From positions 3,872,001 through 3,936,000 of the forward strand of contig OZ242010.1 of NCBI GenBank assembly GCA_965204745.1: a DNA stretch of 64,000 bases, given 5' to 3'. A model generated the notes under the pieces. The model was not told the origin of the DNA and searched no databases. It was given only the letters and a program-made list of their open reading frames with translations. The stretch comes from Candidatus Latescibacterota bacterium (GTDB lineage: Bacteria > Latescibacterota > UBA2968). This document shows positions 5,066 through 62,835 of this stretch, piece after piece (the stretch's first letter is position 1; the number at the start of each line of letters is the position of its first letter). The position numbers and the translations under genes were made by a program.

Positions 5066-5342
5066 ATGCGAATTAAGAGTTGAATCCATCGCGTACTTGT
5101 CTTTAATTATTGGGACCTACCCCCCTAACCCCCGTTACTCGCTTCGTTGTAGGCTACGCCTGTGCCTGCGAGGAAGGGGGAATAACATCTCTCCGTTGCG
5201 GGGATGAGCCGGAGGAGGGGACATCGTTTTTTAAGACTAGTTCTAAGGGGCGATCCTATAATGGATGAGTCGTTCATGTCTTTAGACGATTGGTTGCGGC
5301 TTGCTTCTTACTTCTTACTCGCTTTCTACTCTTAATTCGCAT
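5066..5342. mobile_element. MITE related to the IS982 end
   Basis: 15-bp TIR ATGCGAATTAAGAGT/ACTCTTAATTCGCAT. Its first ~35 bp are the reverse complement of the IS982 end at ~536-568. Internal GGGACCTACCCCC...GGAAGGGGG palindromic unit. Confidence 0.75.
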
Positions 5343-5351
5343 TTTTAACCA

Positions 5352-6641
5352 ATGACCCTCATGCATTCAGAAAACGAAATCACATCTCGAGACGCGCTTT
5401 GCGACTGGCAGTTGAAACGCTTGCGGAGCCTGCTGTGCGCGGTCTTGGCGGACAATGCGTTTTACCGCGAAAAGCTCACGCGGGCGGGCATTCGGCGGGC
5501 AGAAGACATCCAAACCATCGCGGACTATCGCCAACTGCCCTTCACCACCAAAGCGGAATTGTCCGCGGATCAAGCGGCGCATCCGCCCTACGGCAACAAC
5601 CTCACGTTCCCGGCAGAACACTACCTCCGCCTCCATCAAACATCCGGCACCGCCGGCAACCCCTTGCGCTGGTTGGACACGGAAAGCAGTTGGGCGTGGT
5701 TTGCGCGTTGCTGGCTCCCGGTGTATCGCGGGGCGGGCGTAACCGCAAATGACACCGTGTTTTTTGCGTTTTCATTCGGCCCGTTCATCGGGTTCTGGTC
5801 CGCATTTGAAGCGGCCCGCTTGATGGGCGCGTTGTCGATCTCTGGCGGGGCCATGTCCTCCATCCAACGCCTGCAAGCGATTCGGGATCACGAGGCCACC
5901 GTGCTCATCTCCACGCCCACTTATGCCCTGCATCTCGCAGAAGTGGCCCATGCCGAAGGCATCGACATCGCCAACAGCAGCATTCACACCACCATTCACG
6001 CGGGCGAACCGGGCGCGGGATTGCCCGCAACCAAAGCGCGCATCGAACAGGCATGGGGCGCGCGGTGTTACGACCATGCAGGGGCCACAGAAGTGGGCGC
6101 GTGGGGATTTGAATGCGCGTTGCAAAATGGCATGCACATCAACGAGCGCGAATTTATCTGCGAAGTGATCGACCCCAACACCGGCGAACACGCGCTTGAA
6201 GGCGAACTCGCGATCACCAATTTGGGACGCATCGGCATGCCCGTCATCCGCTACCGCACGGGAGACCGCATCCACCTAAACCCCGAACCCTGCGCGTGTG
6301 GCTCTGTTTTCTCGCGTCTGATAGGCGGCGTGATCGGGCGCATCGACGATGCCGTGATCATCCGAGGCGTGAATGTCTATCCCAGTACCATCGAAAATAT
6401 CGTGCGGAGTTTTCCCGAGGTCGCGGAATTTGCCGTGGATATTTACCGCCGCAGCGAAATGGACGACATGGAAATCCGCTTGGAACTCAACGGCGGGCCG
6501 CAAGGGTCGGTTGCCGATGCCATCGTCCGCGAAGTGCGCCACATCTTGGGCATTCGCGCGGGCGTTCAAACCGTACCGCCCAATACCCTTCCGAGATTCG
6601 AACTCAAGGCGCGGCGATTCAATGATCATAGAGAGAGGTGA
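5352..6641 (+). CDS. Phenylacetate-CoA ligase family (PaaK-like) adenylating enzyme
   Basis: HQTSGTAGNP, AGEPG, IRYRTGD, GRIDD, RGVNVYP motifs. Confidence 0.88.
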   Translation: MTLMHSENEITSRDALCDWQLKRLRSLLCAVLADNAFYREKLTRAGIRRAEDIQTIADYRQLPFTTKAELSADQAAHPPYGNNLTFPAEHYLRLHQTSGTAGNPLRWLDTESSWAWFARCWLPVYRGAGVTANDTVFFAFSFGPFIGFWSAFEAARLMGALSISGGAMSSIQRLQAIRDHEATVLISTPTYALHLAEVAHAEGIDIANSSIHTTIHAGEPGAGLPATKARIEQAWGARCYDHAGATEVGAWGFECALQNGMHINEREFICEVIDPNTGEHALEGELAITNLGRIGMPVIRYRTGDRIHLNPEPCACGSVFSRLIGGVIGRIDDAVIIRGVNVYPSTIENIVRSFPEVAEFAVDIYRRSEMDDMEIRLELNGGPQGSVADAIVREVRHILGIRAGVQTVPPNTLPRFELKARRFNDHRER

Positions 6642-6716
6642 GAGGCAAGAGGTGAGAGGCGAAAAGCGCAAGAGGGGAGAGGCAAGAGGCAAGAGGCAAG
6701 ATACTCTCTTAAAAGG

Positions 6717-7724
6717 TCAAGGGGTTTTCGGGGTGATTCGATAGAATTTTTCGCCCTCAAAATCTTGGTCATGGCGCAACATGCCCCAGATCGAATGGAG
6801 CAACTTTCGCATCACCGCAACGATAGCCTGCAAAGGTTTCTTGCCGCGGGCGATGAGTTGGTCATAGAAGGCTTTGACATGGCCTTCGTGTCTGATGGCC
6901 ACCCAGGCAGGCATATAGAGGGCATGGCGGAGGTACTTATTCCCGGTTTTCGAGATGCGTCTTTGTGGATTGGCGGTTCCGGATTGTTTGGGTTTGGGAT
7001 CCAGGCCTGCATGTGCGACCCACTGGGGCGGTTGCATCTCCTCTGGCAAAAGGGTCAACTCGGCCAAGAGCCGCAAGGCACTCGTTTGCGCGATGCCAGG
7101 CGTCGAGCAGAGGCGTTGGTAGGCACGCTTGAGGGGCTCATCGTGCAAAACGAGATCGAGGGCTTGGCTTTCCAAGTATGCAATCCGGCGTTTGAAGTGT
7201 CGAATATTCACCTGAATATCGCGTGCGATGAGACGTGTGCTGCGGATGTGGTAGCTCTGCGCGTGGTTGCGGCTCTGTTCGCGGATGATCTCCTGCTTGA
7301 GTTGGTCAATGCGTCTGGTGAGGGCTTGCAGTTGAAGCCGTTGCTCGCTCGGCGCTTGCCAAGGCACAAAAGGCATGCGCTCGGCATAGTCGAGGATCAA
7401 CAACGCATCCTTCGCATCCGTCTTCGCCCGTTGCATGCAGGCTTGGGCGTACTTGCTCATCGCTTTGGGATTGACGACCATGACCTTTGTGTGGCGATGC
7501 CGATGCAAGGCCAAGGCCACCCCCAAACTGTAAAGCCCGGTCGCTTCGAGGCACACAGAGACCATGTGCCCGCCCTTCGTGAGCCACTTCAGCAACCGCT
7601 TATGCGCTTGGGGATCATTGGCAAAGGTCGCTTGCATGACAGCTTGTCCGGGTCTGGACAGGGCAACGGACAACGTGCGGGCACTGACATCAATGCCGGC
7701 AAAAGCGGGGTGAGATTTCGACAT
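6717..7724 (-). CDS. IS110-family DEDD recombinase/transposase
   Basis: GIDVS, LEATG, KTDAKDA (DEDD), PKQSG serine motif, GNKYLRHALY, AVMRKL; ATG 7724 follows AGGAGG. Confidence 0.95.
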   Translation of the reverse strand: MSKSHPAFAGIDVSARTLSVALSRPGQAVMQATFANDPQAHKRLLKWLTKGGHMVSVCLEATGLYSLGVALALHRHRHTKVMVVNPKAMSKYAQACMQRAKTDAKDALLILDYAERMPFVPWQAPSEQRLQLQALTRRIDQLKQEIIREQSRNHAQSYHIRSTRLIARDIQVNIRHFKRRIAYLESQALDLVLHDEPLKRAYQRLCSTPGIAQTSALRLLAELTLLPEEMQPPQWVAHAGLDPKPKQSGTANPQRRISKTGNKYLRHALYMPAWVAIRHEGHVKAFYDQLIARGKKPLQAIVAVMRKLLHSIWGMLRHDQDFEGEKFYRITPKTP

Positions 7725-7789
7725 GGGGGCCTCCTGTGATGAGGGGGTTGTAAGGGATCTGGTGCGCGCTCGGGGTCGCGTCCCGACCA

Positions 7790-7980
7790 TTGACGCCAAG
7801 TCTACCGGTCTTGTATATGCAGCCTCAAGGGGCTTAGATACTCTTCGGCATAGACCCGGCGGTCGGGGGGCCTATCTTACCTACAAGGTCATCGCCTTCA
7901 AGAGGGGCCGGCCTTCCCCGAGCCGGGCATCAAGATGGCTTATCTCGATACGAGGGCGCAACTCCTAATTAACCCTTACT
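7790..7980 (-). ncRNA. Predicted IS110 bridge RNA (copy 1)
   Basis: Two stem/internal-loop/hairpin modules with guide segments matching the target site (7899-7907, 7875-7882) and the donor junction (7836-7844, 7809-7816). Ends approximate. Confidence 0.85.
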
Positions 7981-8098
7981 TCCAAGATACAAGAGGGGAA
8001 AGGCGAAAAGCGAAAAGCGCAAGAGGGGAGAGGTAAGACGGAAGAGGGGAGATGGGAGTTTAGAGCGGGCCGCAGGATAAATTGTTAGGAATGTTGCT

Positions 8099-9358
8099 AT
8101 GATCTCGACGCACTACGATGTCATTGTCATTGGTGGCGGGCCGGCCGGGAGTACGACGGCGGCACTCGTTGCGGAGTACGGGCACCGGGTCTTGTTGCTG
8201 GAGCGGGAGGAATTTCCCCGATTTCAGATCGGCGAATCCCTGATGCCCGGCACGTATTGGTCGTTCAAACGCCTGGGCCTGTTGGACAAATTGGAAAAAA
8301 GTGCCTTTGTAAAAAAATACAGCGTGCAATTTTTCAGCAGTTCGGGCAAAGGCTCTGCGCCGTTTTACTTTTTCAAACACGACCCCCACGAAAGTTCCAT
8401 CACCTATCAGGTGTTGCGAAGCGAATTTGATTTGATGATGCTGGACAATGCCCGGGAAAAGGGCGCCGAAGTTGTGCAGGGAACGAGCGTGCATCGCGTG
8501 CATTTCACTGGGGACCGGGCAACGGGCGTCCAGATCAAAGGCCGCAACGGGCAGGGCCAAGACATTCTCGCCGATGTCATCGTGGATGCCACGGGCCGCA
8601 GCGCGCTCATCTCGAGACGGCTGAAAACCAAAACCGTGGAGCCGAAACTCAAAAAAGCCTCCATCTTCACGCACTTCAAAGGCGGGTTGCGCGACCCCGG
8701 CATCGACGAAGGCGCGACCCTGATTTTGCATACCCGCGACAAGGACTCCTGGTTTTGGTACATCCCCCTGCCCGATGATGTGGTCAGCGTGGGCGTTGTC
8801 GGCGGCTTGGATACCCTGCTCCAAAACCGTAGCGGAACGCCGCGGGAAATTTTTGACGAGGAATTGGCAAAGTGCATCCCCATGTGCGAACGCCTCGCGT
8901 CTGCCGAGCAGTTGTTTCCCATGAAAGTCACGCAGGATTTCTCGTACCGATCCCGCGTTGCCGCGGGCGAGGGCTGGGTGTTGGTCGGCGATGCGTTTGG
9001 GTTTATCGACCCGGTCTATTCCTCGGGCGTGTTCCTCGCGCTCAAATCCGGCGAGATGGCCGCCGATGCGATCCACGAAGCCCTTGAAAAGCGCGATTTC
9101 TCCGCGGAGCAACTCGGCAACTGGGCACCGGAATTTCTGCCGGGCATGGAAGCGATCCGCAAGTTGGTCTATGCGTTTTATTCCAAAAATTTCAGTTTTG
9201 CCAAGTTCCTCAAAGCGCATCCCGAATGTATTGACGGCGTGATCAACATCCTCAAAGGCTATGTCTATCGGGAAGACGTCACCCCGATTTTTGAACCGAT
9301 GGGCCGCATGTGCGACCTACCCGAAGATGTGGCACACTACGCCGAAGCCGCGTCTTAA
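8099..9358 (+). CDS. FAD-dependent oxidoreductase, flavin-dependent halogenase-like
   Basis: GGGPAG, IGESL, WFWYIP (WxWxIP) and GDAFGFIDPVYSSGV motifs. Confidence 0.85.
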   Translation: MISTHYDVIVIGGGPAGSTTAALVAEYGHRVLLLEREEFPRFQIGESLMPGTYWSFKRLGLLDKLEKSAFVKKYSVQFFSSSGKGSAPFYFFKHDPHESSITYQVLRSEFDLMMLDNAREKGAEVVQGTSVHRVHFTGDRATGVQIKGRNGQGQDILADVIVDATGRSALISRRLKTKTVEPKLKKASIFTHFKGGLRDPGIDEGATLILHTRDKDSWFWYIPLPDDVVSVGVVGGLDTLLQNRSGTPREIFDEELAKCIPMCERLASAEQLFPMKVTQDFSYRSRVAAGEGWVLVGDAFGFIDPVYSSGVFLALKSGEMAADAIHEALEKRDFSAEQLGNWAPEFLPGMEAIRKLVYAFYSKNFSFAKFLKAHPECIDGVINILKGYVYREDVTPIFEPMGRMCDLPEDVAHYAEAAS

Positions 9359-10706: not shown

Positions 10707-11119
10707 CATTTAGGAGCAAAGCAACTGGCTTGAGCGGTTTATCAAGAAAATCAAGCCCTATCGCAGAATATGCTCTCGGTTGGAGAAACTGAAACAGTCG
10801 CTCCTTATCGGGACCTACCCCCCTAGCCCCCCTTCCTGCGAGGAAGGGGGGAACTGTGAGCGGTTTTGCGAGGGGATTGATGAGGAATATTTAATCGCTT
10901 TATGCCCTCGCACAACGCCATCAGAGCCACCATAGCGAGAAGCCATCAAAGGGACTTTACTCCCCTTTCCTCGTAGGAAAGGGGCCGGGGGATAGGTCCC
11001 CTCGCGCAACGCCATCAGAGCAACCTAAGCCATCAAAGGACCAAACGCCTTAAATGAGCAAGAAGCAACACAGTTGCTACTCTGTGCTAACGTCAAAAAA
11101 ATGAAATGTCAACACAACC
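10696..11119. mobile_element. MITE with 16-bp TIR (IS5-like ends), TA target duplication
   Basis: GGTTGTGTTGACATTT / AAATGTCAACACAACC, flanked by TA on both sides; an inverted homolog lies at 20528-20868. Confidence 0.8.
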
Positions 11120-18209: not shown

Positions 18210-18266
18210 AACAAGTCCTTTCAAAAGAGAGGTGAGACGGGAGAGGTAAGATACTCTCTTAAAAGG

Positions 18267-19275
18267 TCAAGGGGTTTTCGGGGTGATTCGATAGAATTTT
18301 TCGCCCTCAAAATCTTGGTCATGGCGCAACATGCCCCAGATCGAATGGAGCAACTTTCGCATCACCGCAACGATAGCCTGCAAAGGTTTCTTGCCGCGGG
18401 CGATGAGTTGGTCATAGAAGGCTTTGACATGGCCTTCGTGTCTGATGGCCACCCAGGCAGGCATATAGAGGGCATGGCGGAGGTACTTATTCCCGGTTTT
18501 CGAGATGCGTCTTTGTGGATTGGCGGTTCCGGATTGTTTGGGTTTGGGATCCAGGCCTGCATGTGCGACCCACTGGGGCGGTTTGCATCTCCTCTGGCAA
18601 AAGGGTCAACTCGGCCAAGAGCCGCAAGGCACTCGTTTGCGCGATGCCAGGCGTCGAGCAGAGGCGTTGGTAGGCACGCTTGAGGGGCTCATCGTGCAAA
18701 ACGAGATCGAGGGCTTGGCTTTCCAAGTATGCAATCCGGCGTTTGAAGTGTCGAATATTCACCTGAATATCGCGTGCGATGAGACGTGTGCTGCGGATGT
18801 GGTAGCTCTGCGCGTGGTTGCGGCTCTGTTCGCGGATGATCTCCTGCTTGAGTTGGTCAATGCGTCTGGTGAGGGCTTGCAGTTGAAGCCGTTGCTCGCT
18901 CGGCGCTTGCCAAGGCACAAAAGGCATGCGCTCGGCATAGTCGAGGATCAACAACGCATCCTTCGCATCCGTCTTCGCCCGTTGCATGCAGGCTTGGGCG
19001 TACTTGCTCATCGCTTTGGGATTGACGACCATGACCTTTGTGTGGCGATGCCGATGCAAGGCCAAGGCCACCCCCAAACTGTAAAGCCCGGTCGCTTCGA
19101 GGCACACAGAGACCATGTGCCCGCCCTTCGTGAGCCACTTCAGCAACCGCTTATGCGCTTGGGGATCATTGGCAAAGGTCGCTTGCATGACAGCTTGTCC
19201 GGGTCTGGACAGGGCAACGGACAACGTGCGGGCACTGACATCAATGCCGGCAAAAGCGGGGTGAGATTTCGACAT
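18267..19275 (-). pseudogene. IS110 transposase, frameshifted
   Basis: An extra T at 18582-18584 (GGTTTGC versus GGTTGC in copy 1) splits the ORF before the QSG serine motif. Confidence 0.85.
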
Positions 19276-19340
19276 GGGGGCCTCCTGTGATGAGGGGGTT
19301 GTAAGGGATCTGGTGCGCGCTCGGGGTCGCGTCCCGACCA

Positions 19341-19531
19341 TTGACGCCAAGTCTACCGGTCTTGTATATGCAGCCTCAAGGGGCTTAGATACTCTTCGGC
19401 ATAGACCCGGCGGTCGGGGGGCCTATCTTACCTACAAGGTCATCGCCTTCAAGAGGGGCCGGCCTTCCCCGAGCCGGGCATCAAGATGGCTTATCTCGAT
19501 ACGAGGGCGCAACTCCTAATTAACCCTTACT
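19341..19531 (-). ncRNA. Predicted IS110 bridge RNA (copy 2)
   Basis: Same sequence as 7790-7980. Confidence 0.82.
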
Positions 19532-19607
19532 TCCAAGATACAAGAGGGGAGAGGGTTGGTCAGTTCCAGTTCATCCTCAAGTTGTCAGTTGTCAGCGGAA
19601 CGCCAGG

Positions 19608-20527: not shown

Positions 20528-20868
20528 GGTTGTGTTGACATTTTATTTTTTTCACGTTACTCACAGAGTAGCAACTGTGTTGCTTGCTGATTTAATGCGT
20601 CTGGTCCTTTGATGGCTTATATCTCTGGTTGCTCTGATGGCGTTGTGCGAGGGGACCTATCCCCCGGCCCCTTTCCTACGAGGAAAGGGGAGTAAAGCAC
20701 CTTTGATGGCTTAGGTTGCTCTGATGGCGTTGACCGAGGGCATAAAGCGATCAGAAATCCCTCATCAATCCCCTCGCAAAACCGCTCACAGTTCCCCCCT
20801 TCCTCGCAGGAAGGGGGGTTAGGGGGGTAGGTCCCGATGTTGCAGGGCCCGTAAATGTCAACACAACT
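20528..20868. mobile_element. MITE, inverted copy of the 10696-11119 family
   Basis: Same TIRs, TA flanks and internal palindromic units. Confidence 0.8.
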
Positions 20869-27019: not shown

Positions 27020-27223
27020 TATTGGGACCTACCCCCTGGCCCCCTTCCTACGAGGAAGGGGGAAGAACATCTCTCCGTTACGGGAAGGAGCCGGAGGGGG
27101 GGGCATCCATTGTTTGTTTTAAGACAAGTGCTAAGAGACGATCCGATAATGGATGAGTCGTTCATGTCTTTGGGCGATTGGCCGCGGCTTGCTTCTCACT
27201 CGCTTTTTACTCTTAATTCGCAT
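27020..27223. mobile_element. Partial copy of the IS982-related MITE
   Basis: Similar to 5109-5342 and ends in ACTCTTAATTCGCAT; the left TIR is absent. Confidence 0.7.
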
Positions 27224-38151: not shown

Positions 38152-38576
38152 CGGGGTTGGGCGAGGCGGACTGACTACTGACTACTGACTACTTGGGGGT
38201 TGGGCGAGGCTGTCTCACCTCTCCCGTCTCACCTCTCCCGTCTCACCTCTTACCGAAAGGGGTTGGGCAGGGTAGGGACTGACCACTGACCACTGGCTAC
38301 TGACAACTTGGGGGTTGGGCGGGGTAGTCTCACCTCTCACCTCTCCCGTCTCACCTCTCCCGTCTCACCTCTTACCGAAGGGAGTTGGGCGGGGTAGGGA
38401 CTGACCACTGACCACTGACTACTTGGGGGTTGGGCGGGGTAGTCTCACCTCTCACCTCTCCCGTCTCACCTCTTACCGAAGGGGGTTGGGCAGGGTAGGG
38501 ACTGACTACTGACAACTGACTACTGACTACTTGGTGGTTGGGCGAGGCAGGGTAGGGACTGACCACTGACCACTGG
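38152..38576 (+). repeat. Composite array: GGGGTTGGGCRRGG anchors alternating with two heptamer families
   Basis: Eight anchors, each followed by an (ACTGACH)n or (TCTCACC/TCTCCCG)n block. Confidence 0.9.
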
Positions 38577-38583
38577 ACGCGAT

Positions 38584-38922
38584 ATGTTTGAAACCGATAT
38601 CCTCGACAGAGTGCTGAAAACGCGGCGCGAACAGAGAAATCGAGAGCGGATCGCGCTGATTGGACGGGTGGCTGTTGCGTTGCGCGTTTGTCGAGACAGG
38701 TATGGCCTGCGCGAGGCATGGGTCGTTGGGTCGTTGCTTTTTGCAGATCGATGGGATGAGATGTCCGATGTCGATGTGGCGATTGGCGGGGTTTCAGATC
38801 GCGTTTTAGACGTGATGCAGGTCGTGGAAGACGCTGTTGCGCGAGATGTCGATGTGATCGATCTGGATTCGCACATGTCGGCAGACCGCTTTCGGCGGCG
38901 AGGAATGAAAATCTATGGATGA
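38584..38922 (+). CDS. Minimal nucleotidyltransferase (MNT) antitoxin
   Basis: VVGS...SDVDVAI, VDVIDL motifs; overlaps the HEPN gene. Confidence 0.85.
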   Translation: MFETDILDRVLKTRREQRNRERIALIGRVAVALRVCRDRYGLREAWVVGSLLFADRWDEMSDVDVAIGGVSDRVLDVMQVVEDAVARDVDVIDLDSHMSADRFRRRGMKIYG

Positions 38923-61894: not shown

Positions 61895-62751
61895 CCAACA
61901 ACACCCCACGAGCGCATCGCATCCTCCTGCCGCCCAATGACCTCGGCTATGCTTACGACCCTCGCGTTGAAGTCGGGCTTCACGGCGAGATCAAATTGTC
62001 GCCCCAAGTGCTCAGCCACTGCCAATGCGGCGGCAAATCGCCATTTATGGTCATGGATCCCCAGCTCGGCGAACCCGTGTGGTGCGCGTGTTATCCCTTT
62101 CGCATGAAGAAGTACCACATCGACAAATACATCCAAAAATCCGGCATTCCCGCGCCCTTTCGCTTCAAGTTTTCCCAAGACTTCAAAGAGCACTACGACG
62201 ACGGGCAACCCATCCCGGGCGCGCGCTTGCTCAAATCCTATTTCAGCACGTTGGTCGATAATATCAACCGAAAAAAAACATCGATCAAAGGCTTCTACTT
62301 GTGGGGCGAGCCAGGGCGTGGCAAAACCTTTTTCGCCTACATCTTGCTCAACGAACTCATCTTCCGATTTGTCAGACCCGGCAAATTCATCTCCCTCTCA
62401 AAGAGTTTTCACGAACTCCGACACACCTTTGACGAAGGCAGCGAAACCCAAGGCCAGGCCATGCCGATGATCGACATGTTGAGCAATGTGCCCTTCCTCG
62501 TCATCGACGACTTTGGCGTTCAGCGCAACACCGAATGGGAAATGGAAATCCTCTACAACCTCATCGACGCCCGATACGCCAACCAACGCCTGACCTTTAT
62601 CACCACCAACCAAAAGGTCAACGACCTCAAAGACCTCGCCCAAGGGCGCATCTATTCCCGCTTGCTCGAAATGTGCCACATCATCGAAGTCAAAGGCCAC
62701 GACTTCCGCGAACTCGGCAACCCCGAAGACAAATGGATCAGTTTGCGGTGA
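61891..62751 (+). CDS. DnaC/IstB-like AAA+ ATPase
   Basis: GEPGRGKT Walker A, LVIDDFG Walker B, ITTN, RIYSRL, DFR; N-terminal CQC/CAC motifs. Confidence 0.85.
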
Positions 62752-62835
62752 GGGGAGAGGGGAGAGGGGAGAGGCAAGAGGTGAAAAGCGAGACGCAAGA
62801 GGGGAGAGGGAAGAGGTGAAAGGCGAAAAGCGAAA
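62748..62835 (+). repeat. Purine-rich heptamer array
   Basis: GAGGGGA/GAGGCAA/GAGGTGA/AAGCGAA units, the same family as the IS110 flanks. Confidence 0.8.

Follow-up and report, generated by a model that had tools for sequence, protein, structure and literature searches.

A probable bridge RNA in the left end of an IS110-group insertion sequence from Candidatus Latescibacterota, with guides that match unit junctions of heptanucleotide arrays

The stretch of DNA analyzed here, hereafter the window, comprises 64,000 nucleotides (nt) of a Candidatus Latescibacterota genome (GenBank assembly GCA_965204745.1, contig OZ242010.1, positions 3,872,001 to 3,936,000 of the forward strand) and carries two copies of an insertion sequence (IS) of the IS110 group. 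An initial annotation had read in the non-coding part of the first copy a bispecific bridge RNA, that is, an RNA with guide loops matching both the insertion sites and the joined ends of the element itself. The element, 1293 nt long, lies on the minus strand at 6699-7991 and consists of a non-coding left end of 267 nt (7991-7725), a single gene (7724-6717) and a right end extending ~18 nt past the stop codon. With a CT core, its two junctions read left target (LT)-CT-right donor (RD) and left donor (LD)-CT-right target (RT). The targets are junctions between the units of heptanucleotide arrays, (CTYNCNT)n. The features of the locus, with guide and handshake roles as predicted, are listed below in window coordinates.

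6627..6698, minus strand: heptanucleotide array (CTYNCNT)n at the right end of the element, with its left-side partner array at 7992-8053.
6694..6698, minus strand: right target half, TGCCT (RT positions 1-5).
6699..7991, minus strand: IS110-group IS, copy 1, beginning with T7991, the first right-donor base, and ending with the CT core on the right (C6700-T6699), as delimited by alignment of the two window copies and the 52 genomic copies.
6715..6720, minus strand: right-end TTGACC, which overlaps the stop codon; candidate -35 element of a promoter that only joining of the ends in the circle would complete. All relatives retain TTGA.
6717..7724, minus strand: recombinase gene, 335 amino acids (aa), with DEDD_Tnp_IS110 and Transposase_20 domains and the residues D12, E60, D103, D106 and S248-G249.
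7795..7920, minus strand: core of the putative bridge RNA, with the target-binding module (7864-7920) followed by the donor-binding module (7795-7860), from minimum free energy (MFE) folds and from the consensus fold and pair counts of 19 relatives.
7808..7816, minus strand: right donor guide AUACAAG (7816-7810), reverse complement of CT+TGTAT, then the donor-loop handshake A7809, C7808.
7836..7844, minus strand: left donor guide AGAGUAUCU, identical to LD (AGAGTAT) + CT.
7874..7875, minus strand: target-loop handshake AU, complementary to donor positions 6-7 (AT), at the position defined in IS621 (PMC11208158).
7876..7882, minus strand: right target guide (RTG) AGGUAAG, reverse complement of CT + TACCT; U7879 pairs with A or G of the site.
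7900..7907, minus strand: left target guide (LTG) CCCCUCUU, equal to the top strand of the five LT positions + CT + position 10, so that it pairs with the bottom strand.
7984..7989, minus strand: TATCTT in the left end, candidate -10 element of the circle-junction promoter, read from sequence.
7992..7998, minus strand: left target half CCCCT (7998-7994) and the left copy of the CT core (7993-7992).
18249..19542, minus strand: copy 2 of the element, at the site CCCCT-CT-TACCT; an extra A in the run 18582-18584 cuts the recombinase to 262 aa.

The recombinase matches PF01548 (residues 9-154, E = 1.2e-24) and PF02371 (residues 203-287, E = 4.8e-20) and aligns over nearly its full length to the protein of IS621 from Escherichia coli (8wt6), a similarity at the family level only (phmmer E = 5.8e-36). 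Among solved structures, the closest recombinase is that of ISCro4 (PDB 9t56; residues 7-326, E = 7.6e-40), a likeness drawn from protein comparison only. In the phmmer alignment with 8wt6, in which the chain numbering is offset by 2, D12, E60, D103, D106 and S248-G249 stand opposite D11, E60, D102, D105 and S241-G242, the catalytic residues of IS621 (PMC11208158). Directly upstream of the start codon are an AGGAGG ribosome-binding site and a structured leader. The only inverted pair flanking the donor sequence, as read from the sequence, is the 4-bp AAGA/TCTT. Apart from its one extra A, copy 2 is identical to copy 1, and the bridge RNA region is identical in both.

The structure of the leader was assessed in 19 distinct RNA regions from 10 genomes. 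The relatives include two sister species (Latescibacterota metagenome-assembled genomes), one Gemmatimonadota contig and seven genomes from remoter members of the phylum (protein identity 52-64%). Two modules, each a stem with an internal loop, are conserved across these homologous elements. The consensus fold contains four helices, with 93.9% of the alignment cells paired and compensatory changes in 14 of the 31 pairs; the structure drawn in the initial annotation comes close, at 92.5%. Sliding the partner strands by 1-3 columns lowers pairing to 31-52%, and none of 500 shuffles reached the observed stem pairing, a count that overstates its significance because the rows of the covariation test are relatives of one another. 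The first stem proposed earlier, CGGGG..GGCC (7920-7910) / GGCC.CCCG (7872-7864), is present in the sequence, as are both apical hairpins (7898-7885 and 7834-7821). The proposed stem of the second module, GCCGGGUCUA (7860-7851) / UAGACUUGGC (7804-7795), also exists, yet its last two pairs, UA/UA, are not conserved, pair 81-132 being broken in 12 of the 19 sequences. Conserved in their place are a 2-nt bulge and an inner helix, UGCCG (7850-7846) / CGGUA (7807-7803). The left and right target guides are partly complementary to each other and are paired in the MFE folds. A further, conserved hairpin on the 5' side (7925-7948) was rejected as a part of the family structure, being absent in species C. 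A search of Rfam gave a best E of 1.8 and no family relevant to bridge RNAs.

The internal loops hold four strands that match DNA in a strand-specific manner. All four strings read in the initial annotation stand where it had placed them on the minus strand: CCCCUCUUG (7899-7907) and AGGUAAGA (7875-7882) in the first module, AGAGUAUCU (7836-7844) and AUACAAGA (7809-7816) in the second. The empty sites that it had reconstructed, CCCC-TCTT-GCCT for copy 1 and CCCC-TCTT-ACCT for copy 2, agree with our alignments. The match of the second loop to the joined element ends is confirmed as well, AGAGUAUCU being equal to LD+CT and AUACAAG being the reverse complement of CT+TGTAT. The guide ends need one correction: the final A of each 3' strand (7875 and 7809) is more plausibly assigned to the handshake than to the guide. 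This organization closely follows IS621, which has a 177-nt bridge RNA (PMC11208160, PMC11208158). In both elements the recombinase belongs to the same family, the left end carries the RNA, upstream of the gene, the target loop precedes the donor loop, the 5' strands correspond to the top strand, the 3' strands are complementary to it, and CT is found in all four guides (PMC11208160). The handshake AU after the RTG is also that of wild-type IS621 (PMC11208158).

The genome, a single contig of 5.48 Mb, harbors 52 full-length copies of the element, of which 51 retain an intact recombinase frame of 335 aa and 34 have identical left ends. By identity, 37 copies fall at ≥99%, eight at 96.1%, one at 95.7%, one at 94.8% and five at 88-89%. 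When G:U and G:T are counted as pairs, 42 of the 52 pair with their own reconstructed sites at all 16 guide positions, and the LTG alone scores 8/8 at 45 of the 52. The initial annotation had named insertions at unrelated sites as evidence that would speak against guiding; none of the 45 copies with the guide pair CCCCUCUU/AGGUAAG lies in unrelated sequence. Thirty-seven of them are inserted in CCCCTCTTRCCT (CCCCT-CT-TRCCT) and eight in near variants, namely TACCT-CT-TACCT (four copies), CCCCT-CT-CCCGT (two), ...TACTT (one) and ...TGCCC (one). Sites with A and sites with G are both used, in line with the earlier suggestion of a U:G wobble.

The remaining subfamilies carry other guides, with the LTG reading UCCCUCUC, CGCCUCUU or UGCCUCUU, and their sites differ correspondingly from that of the main subfamily, although the protein differs little between subfamilies. 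The variant designated v5 (genome position 1297037) has the guides UCCCUCUC/AGGUGAG and occupies TCCCT-CT-CACCT with a score of 16/16. In the five copies of the 88-89% subfamily, CGCCUCUU or UGCCUCUU (CGCC/UGCC-UCUU) is combined with AAGUAAG; four of these copies lie at YRCCT-CT-TACTT (CGCCT, CACCT or TACCT on the left) and the fifth (1307067) at CGCCT-CT-TACCT, with four scores of 16/16 and one of 15.

Matching of guides and flanks extends across lineages. Over 12 lineages, the five RTG positions and the five RT positions form Watson-Crick matches at 54 of 60 positions, where permutation gives a mean of 33, and the longest exact LTG runs sum to 82 versus 44 upon permutation. For neither the left nor the right target guide did any of 20,000 permutations reach the observed cognate guide/flank score. 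Species B has the RTG AGAAAAG and sites with CT-TTTCT, preceded by C. The element of species C, which likewise targets heptad arrays, has the LTG CUCGCCUCU, the RTG GGGAG and the sites CTCGCCT-CT-CCC. In the distant relatives with the sites AACGT, CACTT, CACGC, CATGC and CACCT, the right guides match 5, 5, 5, 5 (with two wobbles) and 4 of 5 positions, respectively. The Gemmatimonadota relative L056 (48% identity) pairs the RTG CCGUUAG with the site CT-AACGG. The donor is nearly invariant, AGAGTAT-CT-TGTATCTT, and because of this conservation covariation of the donor loop is seen in a single lineage, L064, where the donor end GAAAAC-CT and the guide GAAAAC change together.

The initial annotation had assigned a 4-nt core, TCTT, to donor and target. 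Our data restrict the crossover core to CT. TCTT is ruled out by v5, in which position 10 differs, and by species B, which has C instead of T at position 7; thus, only CT is invariant. It is present at both junctions of all 51 own copies with a parsed left junction (the 52nd, at 5200240, has an extra C after its first base) and at the junctions of all relatives, with the exception of the left junction of L080, which reads AT. The T residues beside CT are guide-read positions that donor and target of the main subfamily have in common: the donor AGAGTA-T-CT-T-GTAT and the target CCCC-T-CT-T-RCCT thereby share four bases. In v5, CT is followed by C in the target and by T in the donor, and both target guides are altered to fit (U to C and A to G), a double change suggesting that in this lineage both of them read position 10. 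The register of the LTG varies, being 5 nt + CT + position 10 in our element and in species B, and 7 nt + CT in species C and the distant relatives; IS621 also has a left guide of 7 nt + CT. Site positions -6 and -7 vary freely (ct, tt, ca, at). As to L080, it and L063, both from genome G041, are identical copies with the left junctions ...CTGCGC-AT-TGTATC and ...GATTGCAT-CT-TGTATC, respectively. In L080 the element is not preceded by CT, and the flank is a better match to the left guide (UUGCGCAU). This junction may have a core other than CT, or may have undergone a 2-bp change.

In IS621, each 3' guide is followed by two bases that pair with the other DNA once strands have been exchanged, and cognate pairing blocks the exchange; the change G166A strongly reduced recombination (PMC11208158). 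The target-loop handshake is AU in 10 of the 12 tabulated lineages and GU in L064, where the donor has AC. Position 1 of the donor-loop handshake forms a Watson-Crick pair with target position 7 in six of ten lineages (A:T in our own element and L062, G:C in species B and L061, C:G in L064, U:A in L065), G:T in three (species C, L060 and L063) and a mismatch in one (C:C in L066). In the main subfamily, unlike in IS621, both donor and target have T at positions 7 and 10, so that A7809 can pair with T7 of its own, cognate donor as well as with that of the non-cognate target. The element has reached 52 copies although A7809, the equivalent of G166A, can pair with the cognate donor T7.

Occupancy of the arrays offers a natural assay of these guides. 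The genome contains 634 arrays of at least three units with 2,888 unit junctions, of which CTCCCCT/CTTGCCT accounts for 51 (~2%). Occupied and empty sites were counted as follows.

CCCCT-CT-TACCT: 20 occupied, 5 empty.
CCCCT-CT-TGCCT (one U:G wobble): 17 occupied, 65 empty.
TACCT-CT-TACCT: 4 occupied, 83 empty.
CCCCT-CT-TACGT: 0 occupied, 18 empty.
CCCCT-CT-TGCGT: 0 occupied, 38 empty.
CCCCT-CT-CCCCT: 0 occupied, 45 empty.

With 20 sites occupied and 5 empty, the perfectly matching site is close to saturated. With one G:U wobble, occupancy falls from 80% to 21%, or about fourfold (TGCCT versus TACCT, Fisher P = 1e-7). Sites with two mismatches to the guide at the far end of the left target are still used at ~5%, and a single C-to-G change at right-target position 4 gives 0/56.

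Taken together, the region very probably specifies a bridge RNA, belonging to an IS110-group element that works in the manner of IS621. The bispecific reading in the initial annotation is borne out by the recombinase family, the catalytic residues, the position of the RNA, the two-loop architecture and the strand logic of the four guides, and its guide/target matching by covariation within the genome and across species. Besides the kinship of the rows in the covariation test, several observations weigh against this reading. MFE folds of the single sequence recover roughly both modules, at energies weakly better than those of shuffled sequences (z = -2.47 and -1.61), hence our reliance on comparative data. 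In the integrated copy, a sigma-70 scan of the left end detected no promoter. The left-target matches of species B are weaker, with longest exact LTG runs of 4-8 nt including CT and the next T. Ten of the 52 copies, among them the copy at 602783 described below, fall short of full pairing: the others are the four with LT TACCT (6/8), the two with RT CCCGT (5/8) and two with one RT mismatch each, as well as the copy at 5200240, which was mis-scored through its extra left-end base and would be the forty-third with full pairing. The donor guide of v5 has one mismatch to its own end. Finally, copy 602783 has guides that fit the sites of the 88% subfamily and sits at a v5-type site (13/16); it is like the 88% subfamily over its first ~115 nt and like the 96% subfamily thereafter, and it is probably a mosaic in which the target loop was replaced after insertion.

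Before 2024, target choice in IS110 elements was assumed to be a matter of the protein. The structured leader could accordingly be only a cis regulator of recombinase translation or stability in the 5' untranslated region, with the protein picking the target. The structure does adjoin the start codon and the AGGAGG site, and no promoter was found in the integrated left end. However, a cis regulator gives no reason for four loop strands that match target and donor strand-specifically, or for loop changes that follow the changes of insertion site, both inside one genome and over 12 lineages, when the protein varies little between subfamilies. We therefore consider a purely regulatory leader very unlikely; a regulatory role in addition to guiding is possible.

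The matches between loops and flanks might instead be a by-product of CT-rich, low-complexity sequence in the element and its leader, given that the targets are simple heptad repeats in 634 arrays and that LTG and RTG are partly complementary. Relatives outside heptad arrays nevertheless match equally well (AACGT, CACGC, CACTT and AACGG, all 5/5), and the permutation controls contradict a compositional origin. Furthermore, CTCCCCT/CTTGCCT makes up 51 of 2,888 junctions, yet 37 of 45 copies are found at CCCCT-CT-TRCCT, and the near-identical TACGT and TGCGT sites are occupied in 0/56 cases; we give this explanation next to no credence. Equally remote is the idea that the element belongs to the IS1111-type seekRNA systems rather than to the bridge RNAs of the IS110 group. 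The two groups are parts of the same family and have DEDD recombinases and the principle of RNA guidance in common, but IS1111 elements show the reverse arrangement, with the RNA in a long right end, and have subterminal inverted repeats of 7-17 bp (PMC11208160). Here the RNA is in the long left end (~267 nt), upstream of the gene, and the right end of ~18 nt leaves no room for it downstream.

If the element works as a bridge RNA system, its cycle could proceed as follows. The circular form would join the two ends into the donor AGAGTAT-CT-TGTAT, and the RNA of the left end would fold into the two stem/internal-loop modules. In the first module, AGGUAAG would pair with the top strand CT-TACCT, or with CT-TGCCT through the U:G wobble; in the second, AGAGUAUCU and AUACAAG would hold the donor junction likewise. 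A tetramer of the DEDD/serine recombinase would then exchange strands at the common CT. Guide changes in the sister subfamilies would retarget insertion to other unit junctions of the heptad arrays. The data show the anatomy of the element, its conserved structure, the matching and covariation of guides and sites, and the multitude of near-identical copies; transcription of the RNA, the chemistry, the action in trans, the activity of the element and the programmability proposed in the initial annotation are inferred.

The -35-like TTGACC of the right end could complete a promoter at the circle junction, in parallel to the junction promoter reported for IS621 (PMC11208158). Joining of the ends would place TTGACC and TATCTT 18 nt apart; the spacing would be 17 nt in the 96% subfamily and in the other species. 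A scan of 6600-8100 for sigma-70 promoters and terminators yielded one promoter-like site inside the gene, at chance level, and no terminators. As to mobility, one contig of run X3 spans the element's position by linking 6693 directly to 8001. Its side of 37 nt, its 90% likeness and a difference in heptad count make this modest support for an empty allele; most contigs break inside the repeat. In the sister genome G082, the genes flanking the element are 258 nt apart. Together with the many near-identical copies, these two observations argue for mobility of the element.

Two copies at CCCCT-CT-CCCGT, in which the right guide scores 5/8, occupy a site that fits the pair CCCCUCUU + ACGGGAG of a truncated element at 2972662. 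The latter is a miniature derivative of 183 nt (genome 2972662-2972844) lacking a recombinase gene; its left end extends as far as the right donor guide and is followed immediately by the right-end tip GTATCT. The two copies could be explained by guidance in trans, by homogenisation of the copies at a later time or by 'half-match' insertion, described for IS621 (bioRxiv 10.64898/2026.08.31.748434). A tentative proposal, somewhat less likely than not, is that the guide variants present side by side in the genome direct each other's copies in trans; it would explain these two insertions.

The relationship between the element and its arrays can be viewed across the genus. Matches to four heptad units number 1,621 in the genome of the window and 1,329 in genome G091, both of which have heptad-targeting elements, versus 0-78 in the 19 other genomes of the genus, among them a sister species (17) with an element targeting another sequence. 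The two array-rich genomes are each other's closest relatives, and thus represent a single evolutionary co-occurrence. The array unit of 7 nt equals the core (2) plus the length of the right target (5). We considered whether the element had created the arrays and found this unsupported, since arrays occur at low numbers in members of the genus without the element. It is compatible with the unit length and the counts above, but improbable in our estimate, that the recombinase and its RNA drive expansion and turnover of the arrays by guide-directed, target-with-target 'half-match' exchange between junctions; the action of guide variants in trans proposed above is a weaker and more likely form of this idea.

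Several further observations concern the copies and the surrounding DNA. At genome positions 1121595-1124179, two full copies, one of the 100% and one of the 96% type, lie in tandem with 12 nt between them, corresponding to the right-end tip and core of the first copy followed by a single heptad; the second copy sits in the TACCT-CT-TACCT junction formed beside the first. Truncated remnants of an older subfamily, 88-98% identical over 60-870 nt, are found at 921773, 1263488, 1433019 and 2089465, all behind one longer repeat ending ...CGCCATTCCCCCTT. In those that have kept the target loop, it reads (U)CCCCCCUU, indicating that the target of an older guide variant was another repeated sequence. 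Heptad arrays abound in the intergenic DNA, with further examples in the window at 38170-38592 and 62747-62831, and a second, ACTGACT-like heptad family is present at 38170-38592 and near 19580-19600. The window also contains a direct repeat of ~150 nt (5165-5312 and 27047-27200, 85-88% identical and 21.9 kb apart), upstream of the gene at 5352, and an inverted repeat of ~216 nt (10807-11025 / 20627-20838), the two arms of which are 92-97% complementary and bracket ~9.6 kb including copy 2 of the IS.

The element is a canonical member of the bridge-RNA group, and its mechanism is already known rather than new. By every feature that can be defined, it belongs with the IS110-group bridge-RNA elements described in 2024 (PMC11208160, PMC11208158; see also PMC13626964), and it differs in four details. 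IS621 is directed to a repetitive extragenic palindromic (REP) element, whereas here the target is the unit junction of a tandem heptanucleotide array, in place of REP, attC or transposon ends. The register of the left guide, the four bases common to donor and target and the coexistence of guide variants in one genome are the other three. ISPpu9 (PMC12288879) and ISPpu10 (bioRxiv 10.64898/2026.03.19.712850) of Pseudomonas putida are comparable cases of IS110 elements multiplying in repeated intergenic sequence of the host, but their targets are palindromic and REP-type, in contrast to the tandem array and the several guide variants in one genome seen here. The seekRNA elements of the IS1111 group share the family and the RNA-guided principle and differ in their right-end RNA and long subterminal inverted repeats. 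A literature search, which did not extend to the supplementary bridge-RNA catalogues of PMC11208160, revealed, among the matches listed, no connection of IS110 elements to either heptanucleotide arrays or Latescibacterota.

The value of the system lies in its being a natural specificity data set: one closed genome with 52 copies, at least four guide variants and countable empty sites, from a phylum of which we know no cultured representatives. It documents natural retargeting by one or two base changes per guide, and a donor/target pair with four common bases that has evidently been very successful. The element is also a compact candidate orthologue for the engineering of bridge recombinases.

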